A stretch of 64,000 nt of DNA from Candidatus Woesebacteria bacterium. Lineage in GTDB: Bacteria; Patescibacteriota; Microgenomatia; UBA8517. The notes under the pieces are model-generated. The model ran no database searches, was not told the DNA's origin, and worked only from the letters and a program-made list of their open reading frames with translations. This document shows positions 4,570 through 63,368 of the stretch, in pieces. Within the stretch, counting starts at the first letter, position 1. Every line of letters begins with the position of its first letter. A program made the translations under genes and the position numbers. The DNA is taken from the NCBI GenBank assembly GCA_016700095.1, contig CP065002.1, forward strand, positions 496,463 to 560,462, given 5' to 3'.

Positions 4570-4905
4570 ATGACGAATTGTGTGTTTTGTAAAATAGTTG
4601 AAGGAAAACTACCGGCGAAAGTGAGGGAGGAAACAAAAAATGTCATTGCTTTTGATAGCATAGATCCCATTGCCACAACCCATATTATAATTATCCCCAA
4701 AGAGCATATCGTATCCTTTATCGACATACAAAAATCACACCACGAAACGATTATAGACATGATGGAAGTAATTAATAAATTAATACAAGCTCGAGATATT
4801 TCGGCTGGTTACAAAATTATAGTTAATGGTGGAAAGTATCAAGTTGTGAAACATTTGCATTGGCACCTTGTTGGAGGTAAACTTGGAGAATTAAACGCAT
4901 TATGA
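4570..4905 (+). CDS. HIT family (histidine triad) nucleotide hydrolase
   Basis: C-terminal HLHWHLVGG histidine triad; 111 aa; TGA stop overlaps the next ATG (ATGA). Confidence 0.85.
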   Translation: MTNCVFCKIVEGKLPAKVREETKNVIAFDSIDPIATTHIIIIPKEHIVSFIDIQKSHHETIIDMMEVINKLIQARDISAGYKIIVNGGKYQVVKHLHWHLVGGKLGELNAL

Positions 4906-30357: not shown

Positions 30358-33300
30358 TTATTTTCTAGGAAGACGTTTTCTTACAATAAATACAATTCCA
30401 CCGATTACGACAATAAAAAGTCCGAAGGCTGTAATTGGTCCAATGATACTAAATATTCCGGAAGAATAATCGAGAGCACTTACATTATCGTAACCGACTG
30501 GAGGCATCATTTGTGTGTCAGTTGCACTTTTATTCATTCCAAAGAAGTTAAGGTTTAAATCGGAACTAATACCGTCAGCCGGATCCGACAGCGTTACGCG
30601 TTGGGGTTGGGTCGTAGTTTGTTCTCTATATCTATCTGCTCGCATAGACTCTCTTTCCAGCTGTGAAATTTGTTGATCATTAACTAGCGCAATCAATGAT
30701 GAATAAGGTGTCACGATATTAGCGTTTGTAGCAATTAAATCAAGTTCGTCGAGAAATGCCGTATCTTGTATCAACGTGCTTCTATCGCGTATTTTCTCAT
30801 CAATAATAGCCTTGGCAAAAACGTAGGAAAGAGGATCGGATGCTTGAGTTTCTATTAATATCGGTAAATCGACATATACCTTGCTAAATTCACCGTGGAT
30901 ATTGGGAGCGACAATCGAATCGAAGGAAGAGTTGTGTGCTAATGCATATACCAAAGCTTGCTCGAAGCTCGTGTAAGAATAGGTATTGGATTTTAAAAGA
31001 GTAGGCAGGAGATTGTCAGAAACTTGCAAAAAGCCGGTGTCATTAATTAGTGAGACGTTGTCATAAAGCGATTTGGTCATTTTTGAAATATTGTCAAAAA
31101 CAAAAATTAAATCATAAGAACGTTTGATGCTAGCGGACAAATCGACGATAGAAGTGCTGCCAAAATATGTTATATTGTCCAGGATTTGATCACTATTTAA
31201 TTTAGTTAACGTTTGTGGTTTACTGATTACGTCGTTGTATTTGAAAAACTCGACAGAATTTGCAGAAAGAAATCCTTCATTGTCTTTGAAAAATCGACTC
31301 AACTTTTCTTCGTACTTGTATTGTTTGTTTGCAATGGTGGTATTAAAAAAGATGGCAATTTTGAGGTCCTTTGCGTTGGCTATCAAGTTACATGGATTTT
31401 GAAAACCATAGTTCGTTATTTTTGTCAGATGATCAGTTTGCGAGTTTAAGGTGTAATTACATTTTTCCGGTGAAGGTATATATCCACCCTTGGTTACATT
31501 ATCTTGTGACAAATTACTGTATATTCCATTAACTTTTAGCGAGTAGATGACACCAGTGTCTTTAATATTAATGTTTTCTTTGTATGAGGGAAGAGCGAAT
31601 CCGTTTTTCTCGACTGCGGTTACGTATGTAAACGCGACTCGTTGATTTTTTCCCTTAAGAGTTACCGTATCGTTTTTACCGGGGATGGGGAACACTCTTA
31701 ATCTGTAGGAATTTGGTCCGATTTGTTCGAGAAGTGCGGGATCGCGCTGTGTTTGTATTTGAGCATTAAAAGTACGAGTTGCAGCTCCTTGTGGAGCAAC
31801 CAGTCCTTTGAATTCCAAATCCGGTCCAAGTTGTAAGTTGGTTATCACAGATCCAGGGGGAAGTGAAAAATGATATGAGACCTCTTCGTTGCGTGAGGTT
31901 GTATTTTTGAATTCGTCCTCTATCGTGATAGTTGCCAATAGACCATCGTATGACGTTACGGTGTCAATATTTCTTTTTATCAAATCAACATTTTGAATGG
32001 CAAGTGTTGTTTCTTTGTCATCACCAAATACATAATTATAGGTATTAATTATTGTATATTTATTTTCAAAACTACCCTGGTAAACAAAAGGGTAGGCGAT
32101 AATTTCAAATACATCTTCTATTTTTGTGGCCGTGTCGCTGTCGAGGTCAAAAGAATCGATATATAACCGACTTATAGTGTCATCGTTTTTCGCCATGATA
32201 TACCTATCTTTGAAATTAGCCATATCATTGATGGCGTTTTCTAAGAGATTTTTCTTACTCGACAGCTCCAGAGTTAAGCTTTCTCGTTCCTCGTAAGTCG
32301 AGAGCTTGTGGATGTCAAGCAATTTATTGAAGTAGTTATCAGGACTGGGTTGGTATGACAAGATTGCTACAAGGATAATCCAGATCGCAGTGATTCCAAT
32401 TGATCTTGTGACAAGATAATTTTCTCCCTTATCGCGGGATGATTTTATCCATTGTAAATAAAATATTTTGAAAGACTTAATTGTTACCAAAAAAGGAATC
32501 GACAAGACCAGCAATACTGGAATAAAAATGATAATAAATTCCAAAACACGAACGAACATATCTGCAAAATCGAAAGATCGAGAAAACAAAATATCATAAA
32601 AAGCCTCCGCAAATAGAGGAGCGATAAAGAAACTAAGAATTAAACACAAATACGAAAGAGTAATAAAAAGACTTAACTTGATAAAAAGTGCCATAAATAA
32701 AGGGGTTTTGAATTTGTATTCATATCCGGTTATGTTTGCAAAAAACATCGGAACAGACGACATTATAATCACGAAAAGGAAAATCATAATTTTACTCGGT
32801 TCGGGAAAAAGAGTGAGAAATGTTGTACCCGCCAAAACTACGGGTATTTCCAATAGGAAAAATATACCTCCGTATTTATATTTAATATTTTGTTTTCTCA
32901 GGTGCAAAGAAAGATAAACAACAAAATAGGGGACAAGAAGTAATCCCAAAACAAGGATAACTTTAAAAGGGTTTGTTTCAGTGATTAAATTAATAAATTC
33001 GGATCGCTTGGAAAAAAGTGCTTGAACTAGTATCGCAGAAGTTAGGGCAATATAGAGAAGGTTATATCCCCAGAAAATAAAACCGGCCATAAAAGATGTG
33101 AATTTGTCATTATCGTTTTTGGTTTGGGGTGACTTATCCGTTTGTGGTGCATTTTTTGATATATTGTCGATAATTATTTCCCGTGCGGTTTTCTCGGCTA
33201 AATGTACAAATTCCTTGGGAGCGACTTCTTTCCCGTCGGCAACTACTTTTATGTCACCCGTAATAGCATTGATGACTACTTCGGCGTTTCTTTGGCTATC

Positions 33301-33420
33301 GGGATAAAGAGTGTAATAATTATCAAGCACTTTTGACCGGATTTTCTCCACAATGTCAGATTGGTTGGCGCCGCTTTCAATAGCAAGATCAAGAAGTTTA
33401 GAGTATTCACTCATTAACAT
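30358..33420 (-). CDS. large hypothetical polytopic surface protein (1020 aa)
   Basis: Cytoplasmic N-terminal about 100 aa, about 8 TM helices, an extracytoplasmic domain of about 600 aa, and a C-terminal TM helix followed by the basic tail VRKRLPRK. Confidence 0.6.
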   Translation of the reverse strand: MLMSEYSKLLDLAIESGANQSDIVEKIRSKVLDNYYTLYPDSQRNAEVVINAITGDIKVVADGKEVAPKEFVHLAEKTAREIIIDNISKNAPQTDKSPQTKNDNDKFTSFMAGFIFWGYNLLYIALTSAILVQALFSKRSEFINLITETNPFKVILVLGLLLVPYFVVYLSLHLRKQNIKYKYGGIFFLLEIPVVLAGTTFLTLFPEPSKIMIFLFVIIMSSVPMFFANITGYEYKFKTPLFMALFIKLSLFITLSYLCLILSFFIAPLFAEAFYDILFSRSFDFADMFVRVLEFIIIFIPVLLVLSIPFLVTIKSFKIFYLQWIKSSRDKGENYLVTRSIGITAIWIILVAILSYQPSPDNYFNKLLDIHKLSTYEERESLTLELSSKKNLLENAINDMANFKDRYIMAKNDDTISRLYIDSFDLDSDTATKIEDVFEIIAYPFVYQGSFENKYTIINTYNYVFGDDKETTLAIQNVDLIKRNIDTVTSYDGLLATITIEDEFKNTTSRNEEVSYHFSLPPGSVITNLQLGPDLEFKGLVAPQGAATRTFNAQIQTQRDPALLEQIGPNSYRLRVFPIPGKNDTVTLKGKNQRVAFTYVTAVEKNGFALPSYKENINIKDTGVIYSLKVNGIYSNLSQDNVTKGGYIPSPEKCNYTLNSQTDHLTKITNYGFQNPCNLIANAKDLKIAIFFNTTIANKQYKYEEKLSRFFKDNEGFLSANSVEFFKYNDVISKPQTLTKLNSDQILDNITYFGSTSIVDLSASIKRSYDLIFVFDNISKMTKSLYDNVSLINDTGFLQVSDNLLPTLLKSNTYSYTSFEQALVYALAHNSSFDSIVAPNIHGEFSKVYVDLPILIETQASDPLSYVFAKAIIDEKIRDRSTLIQDTAFLDELDLIATNANIVTPYSSLIALVNDQQISQLERESMRADRYREQTTTQPQRVTLSDPADGISSDLNLNFFGMNKSATDTQMMPPVGYDNVSALDYSSGIFSIIGPITAFGLFIVVIGGIVFIVRKRLPRK

Positions 33421-40747: not shown

Positions 40748-42370
40748 TTATTTTTGTTTACTGAAAATTGGATAAGTAGTTAATTTAGGTACAAATTCGA
40801 ACTTTAGTTCATAAATATCCGCAAAGGGATAACTTTCGACTAACACATAATTTTCAAATCCTTGGGTTTTACTGACAGATCTCCATACCGAATCGTTATT
40901 GTCGTGCGACCGCATAATTATCCACCTTGCCCAATGATCGGGAGTTGTGGTTGCCGATTCCCAATAAGCCCCGGTTCCTTCGTGGATAAACTTTTTCATA
41001 GGCAAATTGGATGAGAATATTATTGCGTCATGGCTGGCTGCCGAAATTAAAACAAAGCCTTCTTTGGATCCGGCATTTTCTTTCAACCACCCCGACACCT
41101 CGGTTACGTTTTTCTGACTTGAACCGACCCTGGCGTCGTCAATTGTTACTGCATCTTGATTTACAAAGGCAAAAAATGTTACAAAAGCAAATAATCCGAT
41201 TATCATCCAACGCAAATCTTTGAACTTGTCCACCAAAAATCCGGAAAAAATAGCAATCGAGGGTAAAAGCATTATTCCGTAACGGACATTGAACCAAGTA
41301 TTTCCCGAAATTCCTTGGATAAAAAGTACGGAGTGGCCAAGGTATAGAGCTAAAATATTAAATACTAACGGTGCCAAGAGTGCAGCAATTGCTATTTTTA
41401 CCTCGTACTTGATTTTGGATGTCCAAATCGCAATTAATCCTACAACTCCCATTAAAACCTGATATGCGTAGGAATTGTAAACCATAGCATAAAGATAAAG
41501 TTTGATAGACAACAAAATATTGTGTTTGGTTGCCAATTCTCCCGCCGCGTTGAGTTGGTCTTGCTGAGCTTTCGCAGAAAATTCCCCAAGTGCAAAGTAG
41601 AGTGGATCTCCAAAAATCATCAAATTCCACAATAACCATAATAGAATTCCTAAACTTCCAAGTGTTAGGAAAAGAAGTATTTTCCCTTCGGTTTCTTTGT
41701 AACCATGTTTTCGAATGACTGTAAAAAATATTATTAATGTTGCTGTAAAAAGAAGAAACCATCCATCGTAGCGTGTGATTGTCGAGAGCATAATAAAAAA
41801 TGCAGCCTTAATTAGATTCAAAATTTCATCTTTTTTCGCCCAAAGCATGAGGTAATATGCACCTAAAGTCATTGTTGCCAGAAGCAATAGTTCCGTCATG
41901 GCTGTTGATTGTAGATAGAGAATGTTTACATTAGCTACAAAAACCACAACTCCAAAGAACCTTCCAATGAGACCAACCTTTAATTGTTCAAGGAATTTGT
42001 AAATAATTACCCCCATAGCAATAAATGAGATCATGGAGACAAGTGCGCCCGAAAGACCCGAATGCCAAAAAAAGTCATTCCAAATTGTCGGGATCATGAG
42101 GACATGGGGGAGAGGAAGCCATACTGAACCCAACTGAGCTATTCCCGGTTTCAAACCTTCAACTACACGTCGACCGATATCCAAGTGACTTCTGGCATCA
42201 TTGTAGGCAAGACCGATGCCGTTTTGGTAGTAGTGAACGAAAAAGTAGGTAGAGATTGCGGTCAGTAAAAATATAATTATTACCACAGCATGTTTCTCCA
42301 ACCACACGTGGATGTTGGCTAAGGTTCTTTTCTGCAGACTAAAACTAATTACAAATTCTGGAATTTTCAT
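40748..42370 (-). CDS. GT-C fold membrane glycosyltransferase (PMT/ArnT, GT39/GT83-like)
   Basis: About 11 N-terminal TM helices with an Asp-containing first extracytoplasmic loop (YNDARSHLDIGRR) and a soluble C-terminal domain of about 130 aa; this architecture marks polyprenyl-phosphate-sugar-dependent GT-C enzymes. Confidence 0.65.
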   Translation of the reverse strand: MKIPEFVISFSLQKRTLANIHVWLEKHAVVIIIFLLTAISTYFFVHYYQNGIGLAYNDARSHLDIGRRVVEGLKPGIAQLGSVWLPLPHVLMIPTIWNDFFWHSGLSGALVSMISFIAMGVIIYKFLEQLKVGLIGRFFGVVVFVANVNILYLQSTAMTELLLLATMTLGAYYLMLWAKKDEILNLIKAAFFIMLSTITRYDGWFLLFTATLIIFFTVIRKHGYKETEGKILLFLTLGSLGILLWLLWNLMIFGDPLYFALGEFSAKAQQDQLNAAGELATKHNILLSIKLYLYAMVYNSYAYQVLMGVVGLIAIWTSKIKYEVKIAIAALLAPLVFNILALYLGHSVLFIQGISGNTWFNVRYGIMLLPSIAIFSGFLVDKFKDLRWMIIGLFAFVTFFAFVNQDAVTIDDARVGSSQKNVTEVSGWLKENAGSKEGFVLISAASHDAIIFSSNLPMKKFIHEGTGAYWESATTTPDHWARWIIMRSHDNNDSVWRSVSKTQGFENYVLVESYPFADIYELKFEFVPKLTTYPIFSKQK

Positions 42371-43896
42371 AAATTTTCCTTTTTATTTTCAAAATATGTA
42401 GCGGTGTAAAAAAGACTTATCAGAAGTAATATGGTGAAAGTATACAACGCAGTGTAATTAATGCTATTCATATATTTGTTAGCATATGCGTTATAAAAAA
42501 TTGAACTATTTAGTTTGTCCTCAGTCATTAATTGCCAGTTATATAAATACGTATGGGGAATCGGGTTGGGTAAATTAACAGCTTCAACTTTTGGGGGTAC
42601 CTGGGAAGTTGTCGTTGCACCCATTACATTAATACCAACGCTATATGTTGTAAGAATTATAAACAAAGGAATAAACCATGCTTTTTTTGTGTACTTTTGT
42701 ATGGCCAAACCGATGGTAATAGATAACACAGCAGTCGCTGGGATTAGATATCTTGGTCCAAATGCCCAACTGCCCGTAGGATCACCAAACATTGTGTAAA
42801 TCAACAAATTTGTCATAGTCACAGCAATTAATAATTTTGATTTGCCGCGCAACTGTTTATTTTTGTAAGCGAAAGCTAGCCCGGCTATTCCAAGTATGAT
42901 GATAGGACTATAAACAAATATGCTTCTTTGGTCACTTATTATAAATATGTAAAAACCTTCAAGTTGCCCTCTTGTTTTGAAGGGTAGACTTAAACCTTTC
43001 TTTTCAACTTCTGAAGAAACCTCAACTTGTAACTTGTTTGTAAAATCATTACTTCGTCCGAGAAATTGGGCCAGTGTAGTGTAAGATTGTGCAGTCTCAT
43101 AATTGTACCACCCAAATATTCCAACTAACGGAATTATTCCAATTAATAAGCCAATAAAATTTAATTTTAAACTAAGCTTAAGTTTACTTCCGGTATTATG
43201 GACATTAAACTGTTTGGCGAGAATATAAAAAACCAGAGGGAACATGATTATTCCATTAGGTATATCCATTAGAAGTCCTATTCCATATGATATACCAAAA
43301 ATAATGTTGTTTAATAAAGTTCTGGGTTTCATGGTATATAAAATCCCAACCAATATTAGAGAAGTACTTGCGTGATGTTGCGTAAATGTGAATGCATAAG
43401 ATAATGCGTTAGTCGCAAACAAAAAAAGTAATCCACACAATATTGACATGTACAAACCTGAACCCAATTTTCTGGATATATTGGCTATTAAGAATAAATT
43501 TACCACTGCAAATAGAATTGTTGAAAAATATGTTGAAATCTGAGGAATTCCAAATTGTTTGCCCAATAAATAAAATGGTACTCCCACGAAAGAAACGCCA
43601 GGTGTGAAGATTGAGAAGTACTTGCCTTTATAATTGGTAACGTCAGGTGAGGCAAATCCTGCTCTTTCTGTATTTAGCATAAAGGTACTGTCTTCCACAA
43701 TCGCTTCAGTTAATGCAAATCTAGAAGTGCTACCAGATGATTCAAAGGGAGTACCCACAGCCGTACTTTTACTTTTTGTATCTTGATATAATAATAAATT
43801 ATCTTCTCTTTTACCTTTAACGTTTATTGTTAACAAAAATACTATTACTATAATAAATAGTAAATATGATGAATATTTGATGATATTTTTTAGCAT
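42367..43896 (-). CDS. GT-C fold membrane glycosyltransferase (PMT/ArnT-like), paralog of the previous gene
   Basis: Same architecture (first-loop motif EDSTF..., 10 or more TM helices, C-terminal soluble tail); 4-nt overlap with the downstream gene. Confidence 0.65.
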   Translation of the reverse strand: MLKNIIKYSSYLLFIIVIVFLLTINVKGKREDNLLLYQDTKSKSTAVGTPFESSGSTSRFALTEAIVEDSTFMLNTERAGFASPDVTNYKGKYFSIFTPGVSFVGVPFYLLGKQFGIPQISTYFSTILFAVVNLFLIANISRKLGSGLYMSILCGLLFLFATNALSYAFTFTQHHASTSLILVGILYTMKPRTLLNNIIFGISYGIGLLMDIPNGIIMFPLVFYILAKQFNVHNTGSKLKLSLKLNFIGLLIGIIPLVGIFGWYNYETAQSYTTLAQFLGRSNDFTNKLQVEVSSEVEKKGLSLPFKTRGQLEGFYIFIISDQRSIFVYSPIIILGIAGLAFAYKNKQLRGKSKLLIAVTMTNLLIYTMFGDPTGSWAFGPRYLIPATAVLSITIGLAIQKYTKKAWFIPLFIILTTYSVGINVMGATTTSQVPPKVEAVNLPNPIPHTYLYNWQLMTEDKLNSSIFYNAYANKYMNSINYTALYTFTILLLISLFYTATYFENKKENL

Positions 43897-61315: not shown

Positions 61316-62023
61316 TTAGTTTTGTCCGGTTAGTTGTTCTTTAAGAAGACCAATTACTTTATCCAAGTTGCCGTCGACAATTGCACTTAGATTTCCCCAG
61401 GATTTCTTTACTCTGTGATCGGTTACACGATCTTGCGGATAATTATACGTTCTTATTTTTTCGGATCTCATACCGCGCCCGATTGCAGATCGATAGCCGG
61501 CGACTTCGCGTAACTTTTTCTCTTCTTCTCTCTCCCATAATTTTGATTTCAATATGTCCATGGCAATATCGCGGTTTTGGTATTGAGTTCTTTCTTGCTG
61601 GACGGCTACCACTATGCCTGTTGGGCGATGGGTGAGTCTGACTGCAGTACTTACTTTATTGACGTTTTGACCCCCGGCACCACCGGATCTGGCAAATTGA
61701 ATATCAATATCCTCAGGGCGAACCGTTATCTCGTGACTTTCGATCTTTGGCAACACGGCTACGGTTGCGGTAGAAGTATGTACTCGACCACGCTTTTCCG
61801 TTAAGGGAATTCTTTGTACACGATGAACTCCTGATTCGAATTTTAGATCGCTAAAAGAATTTTCGCCGATTATTTGCAGAGTTGTTTCGTCTATCGGTAG
61901 GGATTTCCAACCTCGTTTGGTAGCATAGCGCATATACATACGCAGTAAATCCGTAGCCCAAATTTTGGCTTCATCGCCACCTGTAGCTGACCTGATTTCC
62001 ACAAATGCATTATTTGTATTCAT
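61316..62023 (-). CDS. prfA: class I peptide chain release factor, RF1-like, lacking N-terminal domain 1
   Basis: Begins [26 protein letters not shown] (start of domain 2); codon-recognition tripeptide context RIPLTE (PxT, RF1-type); GGQ motif ([11 protein letters not shown]). Only 235 aa, with 17 nt separating it from the rpmE stop. Confidence 0.8.
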
Positions 62024-62040
62024 AAACTTGACGAAGTTTG

Positions 62041-62376
62041 CTAATTACTTTTGTTAGAGGATTTTTTAACCAACTTTCTGACTTCGGCGAGTGTATCAGG
62101 TTTTTCAAGTTCTTTTTGAATACGTTTATCTTTTTTAATCTGTCTTTTTTGTTGTTTTGAGAGTACCTTTTTATTTGCTTGTGCAAGTTTTGCTTTAAAT
62201 GCATCAACTCGTCCGGCTGTATCAAGATATTTCATTTGACCGGTATAAAAAGGATGACAGGCAGAACATACCTCAACCCTGATCTCGGGAAGAGTAGCGC
62301 CGATTTCAAAGGTGTTACCACATGAGCAAATTACTTTTGCGTCTTTGTACCACTTGGGATGAATATTTGTTTTCAT
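62041..62376 (-). CDS. rpmE: 50S ribosomal protein L31 with about 45-aa Lys-rich C-terminal extension
   Basis: [10 protein letters not shown]...[10 protein letters not shown]...[12 protein letters not shown]... is canonical L31; the ORF continues into [32 protein letters not shown]... Confidence 0.85.
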
Positions 62377-62414
62377 AGTTAATTAGACTAAGTAGGTATT
62401 ATAGCAATTTATAT

Positions 62415-63368
62415 TTATTTGGGCAATTGGCTATGATTAACTGGTTTTTTGGTCTTTTTTTCGGCGATATATATACCAATGGCGATAATTACTGCACCGA
62501 CCACAAATGGCAAAGTAAGTTTTTCATCCAACCAAAATACGGCTAATGGTATGGTAAATAAAGGTTGTAAATACATAAAAAGCGATGCCTCACTAACCTC
62601 AATTGATTTTTGAGACTTCACATACAAAAGGTATGCCAGGTTGCCGGAAAGGACAGCCATATACCAAACTCCCAAATGATACTTAAGAGGCAGACTTATG
62701 ATGGTATCCACAAATCCAAAAAATCCATATTTATAAATCGCAATAGGAGCCAGTGTGATTGCCCCCATCAAAAAAGCCAAGTTTGTTAAATTGGAAGATT
62801 TTACTTTGTTGCGAATTATATATTTTGCAAGAAGAATCGACCCGCTATCGCTGAAAAGATAGAGTACAAGAAGGATATTACCCGAAAACTTAACTGCTTC
62901 GCCCGCTTGGAAAAGCGGAAAAAAGGTGTTTATTACCAGACCGACGATAACAATTGATATCCCGAGTTTTTCCTTTTTTGTAATTTTGTCATGAAATATC
63001 AGGGCACCTCCGGCGGTTACGATTAAGGGTCCGATTGTTCCGACAAGTGTCAGATCCAAAACGGTTGACTTCTCAAGACCAAAAAAAAGAATTCCCAAAG
63101 CTACAGGTACTGCCAATATACCATATAAACTTGCAGCCCAAAAATTCGCCCGTAACTGACGAAATTTTTTACCTCGACGTATTTTACGTGCAAAAAATAT
63201 TAGTGAGATTGTGCCGGCAATTAGAAACCGGTAAGCCAAAAAGGGAAGAGGATCTATACCATTAAAAGTAAACTTAATTACAGGCGAGGCGATACCCCAA
63301 ATTGCCGCGACTAAAATAAGATTGAGATACGCACGGTTTCTAAAAGAGAACTTGGACAAATCAAACAT
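62415..63368 (-). CDS. EamA/DMT-family transporter (10 TM)
   Basis: Two repeated 5-TM EamA-like halves; 317 aa. Confidence 0.7.
   Translation of the reverse strand: MFDLSKFSFRNRAYLNLILVAAIWGIASPVIKFTFNGIDPLPFLAYRFLIAGTISLIFFARKIRRGKKFRQLRANFWAASLYGILAVPVALGILFFGLEKSTVLDLTLVGTIGPLIVTAGGALIFHDKITKKEKLGISIVIVGLVINTFFPLFQAGEAVKFSGNILLVLYLFSDSGSILLAKYIIRNKVKSSNLTNLAFLMGAITLAPIAIYKYGFFGFVDTIISLPLKYHLGVWYMAVLSGNLAYLLYVKSQKSIEVSEASLFMYLQPLFTIPLAVFWLDEKLTLPFVVGAVIIAIGIYIAEKKTKKPVNHSQLPK

Follow-up and report, generated by a model that had tools for sequence, protein, structure and literature searches.

The 64,000-nucleotide stretch of the Candidatus Woesebacteria genome analyzed here (contig CP065002.1, positions 496,463 to 560,462; hereafter the window, whose own numbering is used) contains a prfA gene encoding a release factor 1 (RF1) that consists of domains 2, 3 and 4 only. 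To our knowledge, essentially every RF1 or RF2 protein described so far possesses a domain 1, which is thought to mediate bL12/uL11-dependent recruitment and RF3 coupling. Judged from its sequence, the gene is probably the housekeeping prfA of the organism: its product would read UAA and UAG, would have lost domain 1, and would work without help from the ribosomal stalk or RF3, with a separate RF2 for UGA. The protein is apparently a genuine and conserved variant of RF1, not a new kind of factor, and apparently an undescribed one. A search of the full-text literature, whose coverage leaves out most subscription journals, found no description of a domain-1-less RF1 in the candidate phyla radiation (CPR), and neither a survey of release-factor evolution (PMC6514570) nor a study of ribosome reduction in CPR (PMC9297842) describes one.

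A prfA gene that begins at domain 2

The gene and its functional motifs are located as follows.

61316..62023, minus strand: prfA orthologue, 235 amino acids, domains 2+3+4 only; ATG start, TAA stop
61799..61807, minus strand: PxT tripeptide P73-L74-T75 (PLT), codon recognition, inside the recognition loop
61667..61675, minus strand: GGQ catalytic motif G117-G118-Q119

As the first-pass annotation of this DNA had proposed, the open reading frame (ORF) begins at domain 2. The Pfam family PCRF (PF03462, 5.9e-34) is matched over profile positions 99-194 of 194 only, and the family RF-1 (PF00472, 4.6e-38) over its full length. The NCBIfam prfA model NF001859 is covered from position 103 to position 340 of 347, and the match to TIGR00019 begins at position 110. 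Residues 107-341 of Escherichia coli RF1 align to the ORF in tblastn with 44% identity. The codon-recognition context and the GGQ motif, both described in the first pass, are retained. P73 and T75 are unchanged in 30 relatives, with variation at the middle residue of the tripeptide, and GGQ is invariant in every aligned relative, as are the recognition residues Q70 and H82-T83.

The nearest in-frame TAA lies 8 codons 5' of the prfA ATG, inside the 3' end of rpmE, and no alternative start codon is found between the two; domain 1 is therefore not encodable in frame at this position. The 17 nt between the ORF and the rpmE stop codon (62024-62040) indeed leave no room for it, and no in-frame upstream extension, looked for as a possible refutation, is present. 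In domain 2, a loop of the Woesebacteria RF1 is also shorter by about 10 residues (region 61880-61900, minus strand; columns 151-160 of alignment A1), a stretch that reads SASEGEHGGYK in E. coli RF1, and the factor is therefore minimized at more than one place. NCBI lists an identical protein, encoded on a 1,274,238-bp contig, under the name 'PCRF domain-containing protein [Candidatus Woesebacteria bacterium]'; the absence of domain 1 would account for this pipeline label.

Among the release-factor families, RF1 is the best match. The prfA model scores 319 bits and the prfB model 219 bits, and sequence comparison with entries of the Protein Data Bank (PDB) yields E-values of 2e-74 to 1e-54 for RF1 structures and of 1e-46 or weaker for RF2. 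The recognition loop follows the RF1 pattern with PxT and contains no SPF motif, so that neither the loop nor the top-scoring model is that of RF2. The AlphaFold (AF2) model of the 235-residue protein has a pLDDT of 81.6 and a pTM of 0.75. Foldseek superimposes it on the free RF1 structures from Thermotoga maritima (1rq0), E. coli (2b3t) and Streptococcus mutans (1zbt) with TMq values of 0.80-0.83 and root mean square deviation (rmsd) values of 2.5-4.2 Å (for 1rq0, TMq 0.82-0.83 and rmsd 2.5-3.0 Å). The predicted fold of domains 2-4 is intact.

Conservation of the truncated form

The 120 best homologous clusters, drawn from NCBI, JGI, ENA and Logan assemblies, show 68-78% identity, are all 223-264 amino acids long and have a common start point; the named ones belong to Woesebacteria, Microgenomates or Patescibacteria. 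Longer members carry short N/Q-rich extensions, not domain 1. The mean column identity of a 30-sequence alignment is 72%. The concern that the truncation could be an assembly error was examined through these homologues: it is present in all 120 best clusters, and because more than 120 independent clusters have the same start, such an error is excluded.

The order HisRS-EamA-rpmE-prfA, followed by convergent HtrA and CtpA, is found in 13 independently assembled loci, none of which has space for domain 1 at the rpmE-prfA junction. Among the matches listed in a scan of GTDB, which are distant relatives only, rpmE also lies directly 5' of full-length prfA in Andersenbacteria, other Patescibacteria, Saganbacteria, Vampirovibrionales and cyanobacteria. 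The gene occupies the orthologous rpmE-prfA slot.

Two cluster representatives of RF1, P0121 (477 amino acids) and P0124 (481 amino acids), contain an exact internal duplication of about 120-130 residues and are probably assembly artefacts.

Graded erosion of the N-domain in CPR

The loss of domain 1 noticed in the first pass is genuine here, but it is not unique to one genome; it stands at the end of a graded erosion in many CPR lineages. A survey of 50%-identity representatives and of GTDB genomes (matches listed) yielded N-domains of the following sizes.

About 100-110 amino acids: Moranbacteria, Andersenbacteria, Gracilibacteria and some Saccharibacteria
About 56-80 amino acids, last helix hairpin only: L002 (Microgenomates), L009, L011, Saccharibacteria L017/L041/L070, Kaiserbacteria L026, P0122, P0126 and P0128
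About 0-5 amino acids: Woesebacteria, Gottesmanbacteria L001, L006, L008, Saccharibacteria L034, P0123, P0127 and P0139

A domain-1 hidden Markov model (HMM), built from the N-domains of 55 full-length RF1 proteins, scores full-length CPR RF1 at 59-103 bits and the 56-80-residue CPR forms at 5-28 bits, with four of seven above 18 bits. In a rough neighbour-joining tree of domains 2-4, computed with no support values, the reduced forms fall in two CPR groups and full loss is scattered within both. The distribution tentatively suggests that helices α1 and α2 were lost first and that complete loss then occurred repeatedly. A domain-1-less housekeeping RF1 fixed in a major uncultured radiation, together with extant intermediates, would amount to a natural deletion series, and would demonstrate that living cells can do without domain 1 on an evolutionary timescale.

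Two basic residues (KR, RR, RK or RH) follow PxT-E in 119/119 close relatives (61778-61834, minus strand; P0001-P0120), and RR or KR is found at this place also in L001, L008 and L009. Full-length RF1 proteins from outside CPR mostly have S/T/A and then Q/G here, and a single Lys at the first position occurs CPR-wide. The idea that the basic residues compensate for the loss of domain 1 was discarded: as full-length CPR RF1 also has Lys there, the residues are no specific correlate.

Search for a separate domain 1 and the bL31 tail

The domain-1 HMM was run on 2,589 six-frame ORFs from the window and from the 20-kb loci of six relatives, where the best hit has E = 0.25. A tblastn search of the 64-kb window with E. 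coli RF1, RF2 and their N-domains recovered this gene alone and no domain-1-like sequence. A separately encoded domain-1-like ORF, for which the first-pass annotation had advised a search, was not detected in the window.

The gene immediately upstream encodes ribosomal protein bL31, which has a C-terminal extension.

62041..62376, minus strand: rpmE, 111 amino acids, TAG stop
62179..62376, minus strand: bL31 core, residues 1-66, zinc ribbon with C17/C19/C37/C40; Pfam PF01197 positions 1-64/65
62044..62178, minus strand: bL31 C-terminal extension, residues 67-111 (45 amino acids, basic)
62074-62163, minus strand: conserved tail module, residues 72-101, predicted helix-Pro-helix

The core is that of a type A bL31, with all four cysteines invariant. 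An extension of about 45 residues had been described in the first pass as a poly-Lys/Gln tail; its length stands, but it is not of low complexity and constitutes a conserved two-helix module. Its consensus is SKxEKRRLKKEKKIQKELERPDTLxELRK, eight positions (K74, K77, R78, K81, E89, P93, L96 and R100) are invariant in 24 relatives, and helices are predicted at residues 74-91 and 96-109 with a break at Pro93. The 120 closest L31 homologues are 101-166 amino acids long (118 of them at most 131), and their alignments cover 86-100% of the query. A related motif, (R/G/A)P(K/S)(S/T)L(K/R)E(L/M)L, ends the L31 of L001, L002, L008 and L009; other CPR L31 proteins have unrelated Lys/Ala-rich tails. The extended bL31 is a lineage-specific elaboration of a ribosomal protein that shares its operon with prfA, and bL31 has been listed among the ribosomal proteins enlarged in CPR (PMC9297842).

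The position of this module immediately 5' of prfA raises the question of a split factor, in which domain 1 would be supplied in trans by a small ORF or by the bL31 C-terminal module itself, possibly the former 5' end of prfA captured through a shift of the gene boundary. HHalign sets the tail segment ELERPDTL on the end of RF1 helix α1 (an L..P motif), and in L002 the tail coexists with an RF1 that retains the last 56 residues of domain 1, the two genes abutting as TAGATG. This HHalign alignment falls short of significance (P = 0.059 at a probability of 0.9%; P = 0.22-0.24 for reversed controls), and the domain-1 HMM returns E = 3.9 on the L31 ORF, so that the captured N-terminus was rejected. 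Furthermore, in Saccharibacteria L034 a domain-1-less RF1 occurs together with a plain L31 of 80 residues whose gene is not adjacent; the tail is therefore no prerequisite for the truncated factor. In 70S structures, bL31 has its C-terminus on the head of the 30S subunit, a long way from the uL11 stalk, where domain 1 is situated. A split factor is accordingly regarded as quite unlikely.

In three Saccharibacteria (L040, L041 and L070), L31 lacks the zinc-ribbon cysteines, has an insertion and resembles type B; two of these genes still adjoin prfA.

Primary factor or accessory paralogue

The protein could also be an accessory or rescue paralogue of the PrfH or ArfB kind, with a full-length prfA elsewhere carrying out routine termination. 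PrfH (RF-H) is likewise devoid of domain 1 (PMC1586002), and the search for a full-length gene covered the 64-kb window of the genome. The family scores point away from this possibility: the prfH model reaches 74 bits (73.7; cutoff 166.65, TIGR03072), far below the score of prfA, and matches the GGQ-domain region only, and RF-H structures give 1e-15 where RF1 gives 2e-74. The ArfB model (54 bits) matches residues 97-131 only, and since domain 2/4 is present, the protein does not fall with ArfB/ICT1, in which a GGQ domain and a basic C-terminal tail occur without a codon-recognition domain.

The recognition loop is the canonical PxT loop of RF1 and not the RF-H variant. No RtcB neighbour exists, the upstream gene being rpmE, and none lies within 10 kb in the relatives. 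The gene occupies the ancestral rpmE-prfA slot, and the protein of Woesebacteria GW2011_GWA1_39_8 that its source names RF1 is itself the short form (246 amino acids). No second PCRF or RF-1 gene was found in the Pfam-annotated 20-kb flanks of four relatives, and tblastn of 80 GTDB loci among the matches listed detected a second release factor only in L049, which is not a CPR genome. The alignment to the RF1, RF2 and RF-H families that had been called for thus favours RF1, and placement with RF-H is rejected by the scores, by the rpmE-prfA position and by the lineage-wide conservation, in agreement with a primary factor. An accessory role is considered very unlikely.

Stop codons and specificity

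The 58 non-overlapping ORFs of at least 100 amino acids in the window end in TAA (32), TGA (16) and TAG (10). Seven 4-nt ATGA start/stop overlaps are present by coordinates (ends at 4905, 5354, 8947, 27361, 28101 and 28907; start at 42367). TGA thus works as a stop codon here, as stated in the first pass.

This raises the possibility that the truncated RF1 has broadened its specificity and also reads UGA, replacing RF2. TGA ends 16 of the 58 ORFs while the window contains no RF2 gene, and the two extra basic residues (KR) after PxT-E are found in 119/119 close relatives; charge changes near the release-factor 'anticodon' have been reported to alter specificity (PMC1586002). However, full-length CPR RF1 proteins, too, commonly have Lys at this place in the loop, and the window represents about 5% of a 1.27-Mb genome, so the absence of prfB from it says little. 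All decoding residues are canonical for RF1, and broadened specificity is therefore unlikely. The CPR lineages known to lack RF2 reassign UGA, whereas UGA is a stop here. An omnipotent factor is considered very unlikely, more so than an accessory paralogue.

A metagenome scan with an RF2-ised chimera alignment (A4) retrieved 80 conventional RF2 loci, none of them recognizably CPR; all have an open frame of at least 97 amino acids upstream, contig-edge cases excepted. A scan of IMG/VR returned host-like and jumbo-phage RF2 genes only. Viral RF2 homologues with full-length N-domains and about 41% identity to the query are found in L175-L181 and L185 (IMG/VR, 40-396 kb, GC 0.26-0.30).

A 5'-truncated prfA arising from misassembly or recent decay is scarcely credible, since only the short length and the sub-threshold equivalog score speak for it, against more than 120 independent clusters with the same start and length, 13 independently assembled loci with the same type of rpmE-prfA junction, and invariant functional residues at a mean identity of 72%.

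The rpmE-prfA junction

The region between the two genes and upstream of rpmE contains the following elements.

62398..62426, minus strand: promoter-like site TTGCCC-17-TG-TATAAT 5' of rpmE; consensus match only
62041..62043, minus strand: rpmE stop codon TAG
62024..62040, minus strand: 17-nt spacer CAAACTTCGTCAAGTTT, with AAACTT/AAGTTT as a 6-bp inverted repeat; rpmE frame free of stops
62020..62023, minus strand: ATGA, the prfA start overlapping the first in-frame TGA after read-through of the rpmE UAG

The upstream site is a candidate promoter for a bicistronic rpmE-prfA unit; promoter-like sites in the region are no more numerous than expected from shuffled sequence. No Shine-Dalgarno (SD)-like motif was found in the 17-nt spacer before prfA. 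Such motifs precede only 6 of 58 window genes, so that their absence at prfA is not special. TATAAT-like boxes lie 6-12 nt before many starts in the window (2229, 8339, 17981, 18580, 19210, 37082, 51231(-) and 56097(-)); their closeness to the starts, together with the few SD motifs, suggests widespread leaderless or very-short-leader mRNAs.

UAG is a stop codon read by RF1 only. Where rpmE lies 5' of prfA, it ends in TAG in 15 of 23 distinct loci, compared with 5.2 expected from the stop usage of each locus (binomial p = 1.3e-5, not corrected for phylogeny). With the addition of nine Woesebacteria junctions, the count becomes 20 of 32 loci against a background of about 22% (TAG in the window, L002, L004, L005, L009, L011, L025, L035, L041, L043, L045, L048, L055, L060, L083, L186-L189 and L194). 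None of the nine Woesebacteria spacers of at most 35 nt contains an rpmE-frame stop (55 codons; estimated chance about 0.02), so that read-through would bring a ribosome to the start of prfA in every case. For the window, L186 and L187 (spacers of 17, 32 and 35 nt), the reading frame of rpmE runs up to a TGA that forms an ATGA overlap with the prfA start codon, and four other loci have spacers in frame with prfA.

The junction may constitute an RF1-sensing coupling, for which these data are suggestive only. When RF1 is scarce, ribosomes would miss the UAG of rpmE, cross the stop-free spacer and arrive at the start codon of prfA; the UGA overlapping that start (AUGA) would halt them in the window, L186 and L187, where they would then reinitiate. 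Such a circuit would be the RF1 counterpart of prfB frameshift autoregulation, and we know of no counterpart of this kind that has been demonstrated. Whether RF1 is subject to feedback, an old question, is raised anew by the UAG bias of rpmE genes that precede prfA.

Proposed mode of termination without domain 1

In the mechanism anticipated for this RF1, UAA and UAG would be recognized via the PxT loop of domain 2/4, and peptidyl-tRNA would be hydrolyzed via the GGQ loop of domain 3. The factor would make do without the contacts through which domain 1 reaches the C-terminal domain of bL12 and the uL11 stalk, and without any RF3 coupling that depends on domain 1; because these contacts are missing, it would arrive at the A site by diffusion and leave by spontaneous dissociation. 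The kinetic cost may be tolerable in slow-growing, genome-reduced CPR cells. For UGA, the genome would encode a separate RF2 at another place, and prfC is predicted to be absent.

Published data are compatible with such a mode of action. According to PMC1586002, which cites Mora et al. 2003, neither codon recognition nor peptide release in vitro requires domain 1, and truncated RF1 is functional in vivo. Stimulation of RF3 depends on domain 1, and small genomes lack prfC (PMC1586002). RF1 domain I is bridged to uL11 by the C-terminal domain of bL12, and RF1 binding becomes 150-fold slower when bL12 is removed (PMC6076264).

Several points weigh against a housekeeping RF1 accompanied by a separate RF2. 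The equivalog cutoffs of the prfA models are missed (319 versus 400 bits for NF001859, 313 versus 423 bits for TIGR00019), as expected from the approximately 105 missing model positions. The window and the flanks of the relatives yielded neither prfB nor prfC. The genes were read in the 64-kb window, and a full-length prfA or a separate domain 1 could in principle lie elsewhere in the genome. Release activity and specificity, finally, are predicted from sequence and model.

A wider proposal, which we regard as unlikely although less so than any of the alternatives above, is that Woesebacteria and allied CPR terminate without contact between release factor and stalk (bL12/uL11) and without RF3, and set their RF1 levels via the upstream cistron. 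Loss of domain 1 would predict correlated changes, namely no RF3, altered stalk usage and possibly a truncated RF2 without the frameshift site. The protein would also offer a minimal RF1 of 230 amino acids for structural and synthetic-biology work.

Other features of the window

Three further minus-strand regions were recorded.

51304-56097, minus strand: 1,597-amino-acid ORF fusing glycosyltransferase domains (two GT2 regions, then GT4 and GT1)
40748-43896, minus strand: adjacent ORFs of 540 and 509 amino acids with an ATGA overlap and no Pfam match at E <= 1e-5
30358-33420, minus strand: 1,020-amino-acid ORF whose sole Pfam match is a VIT (vault inter-alpha-trypsin) domain

Scans for tRNA genes and for Rfam families above the gathering score returned none in the 64-kb window (1-64000).

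Comparison with known systems

The window protein shares domains 2-4, the PxT loop, GGQ and the fold with canonical RF1 (TIGR00019/NF001859; for example 1RQ0 from T. maritima and 4V63 from Thermus thermophilus), with 44-48% identity to solved RF1 proteins. Canonical RF1 possesses in addition domain 1, of about 105 residues, and the domain-2 loop of about 10 residues, both of which are missing here. The short-N-domain RF1 proteins of other CPR (L002, L009, L017, L041, L070, P0122, P0126 and P0128) belong to the same RF1 clade and show the same rpmE linkage. They appear intermediate in the erosion; unlike the Woesebacteria RF1, they retain the final helix hairpin of domain 1 (56-80 residues).

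RF-H is likewise a class-I release-factor homologue without domain 1. By contrast with the window protein, which has an RF1-type loop and no RtcB neighbour, RF-H has a divergent decoding region and an RtcB partner, and is sporadic and accessory.

The junction resembles the enterobacterial hemA(UAG)-prfA operon, where the cistron 5' of prfA likewise ends in UAG. The upstream gene is hemA in that operon and rpmE here, where the evidence consists of a statistical enrichment over lineages. According to PMC7530605, RF1 feedback at hemA(UAG)-prfA was proposed by Elliott in 1989 and never demonstrated.

The closest parallel in architecture is provided by engineered E. coli RF1 and RF2 without domain 1, in which codon-specific release survives the deletion (Mora et al. 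2003, as summarized in PMC1586002 and PMC6076264). Those factors are laboratory constructs with a growth cost, whereas the domain-1-less RF1 of Woesebacteria represents a natural state that is fixed in all the closest homologues listed.

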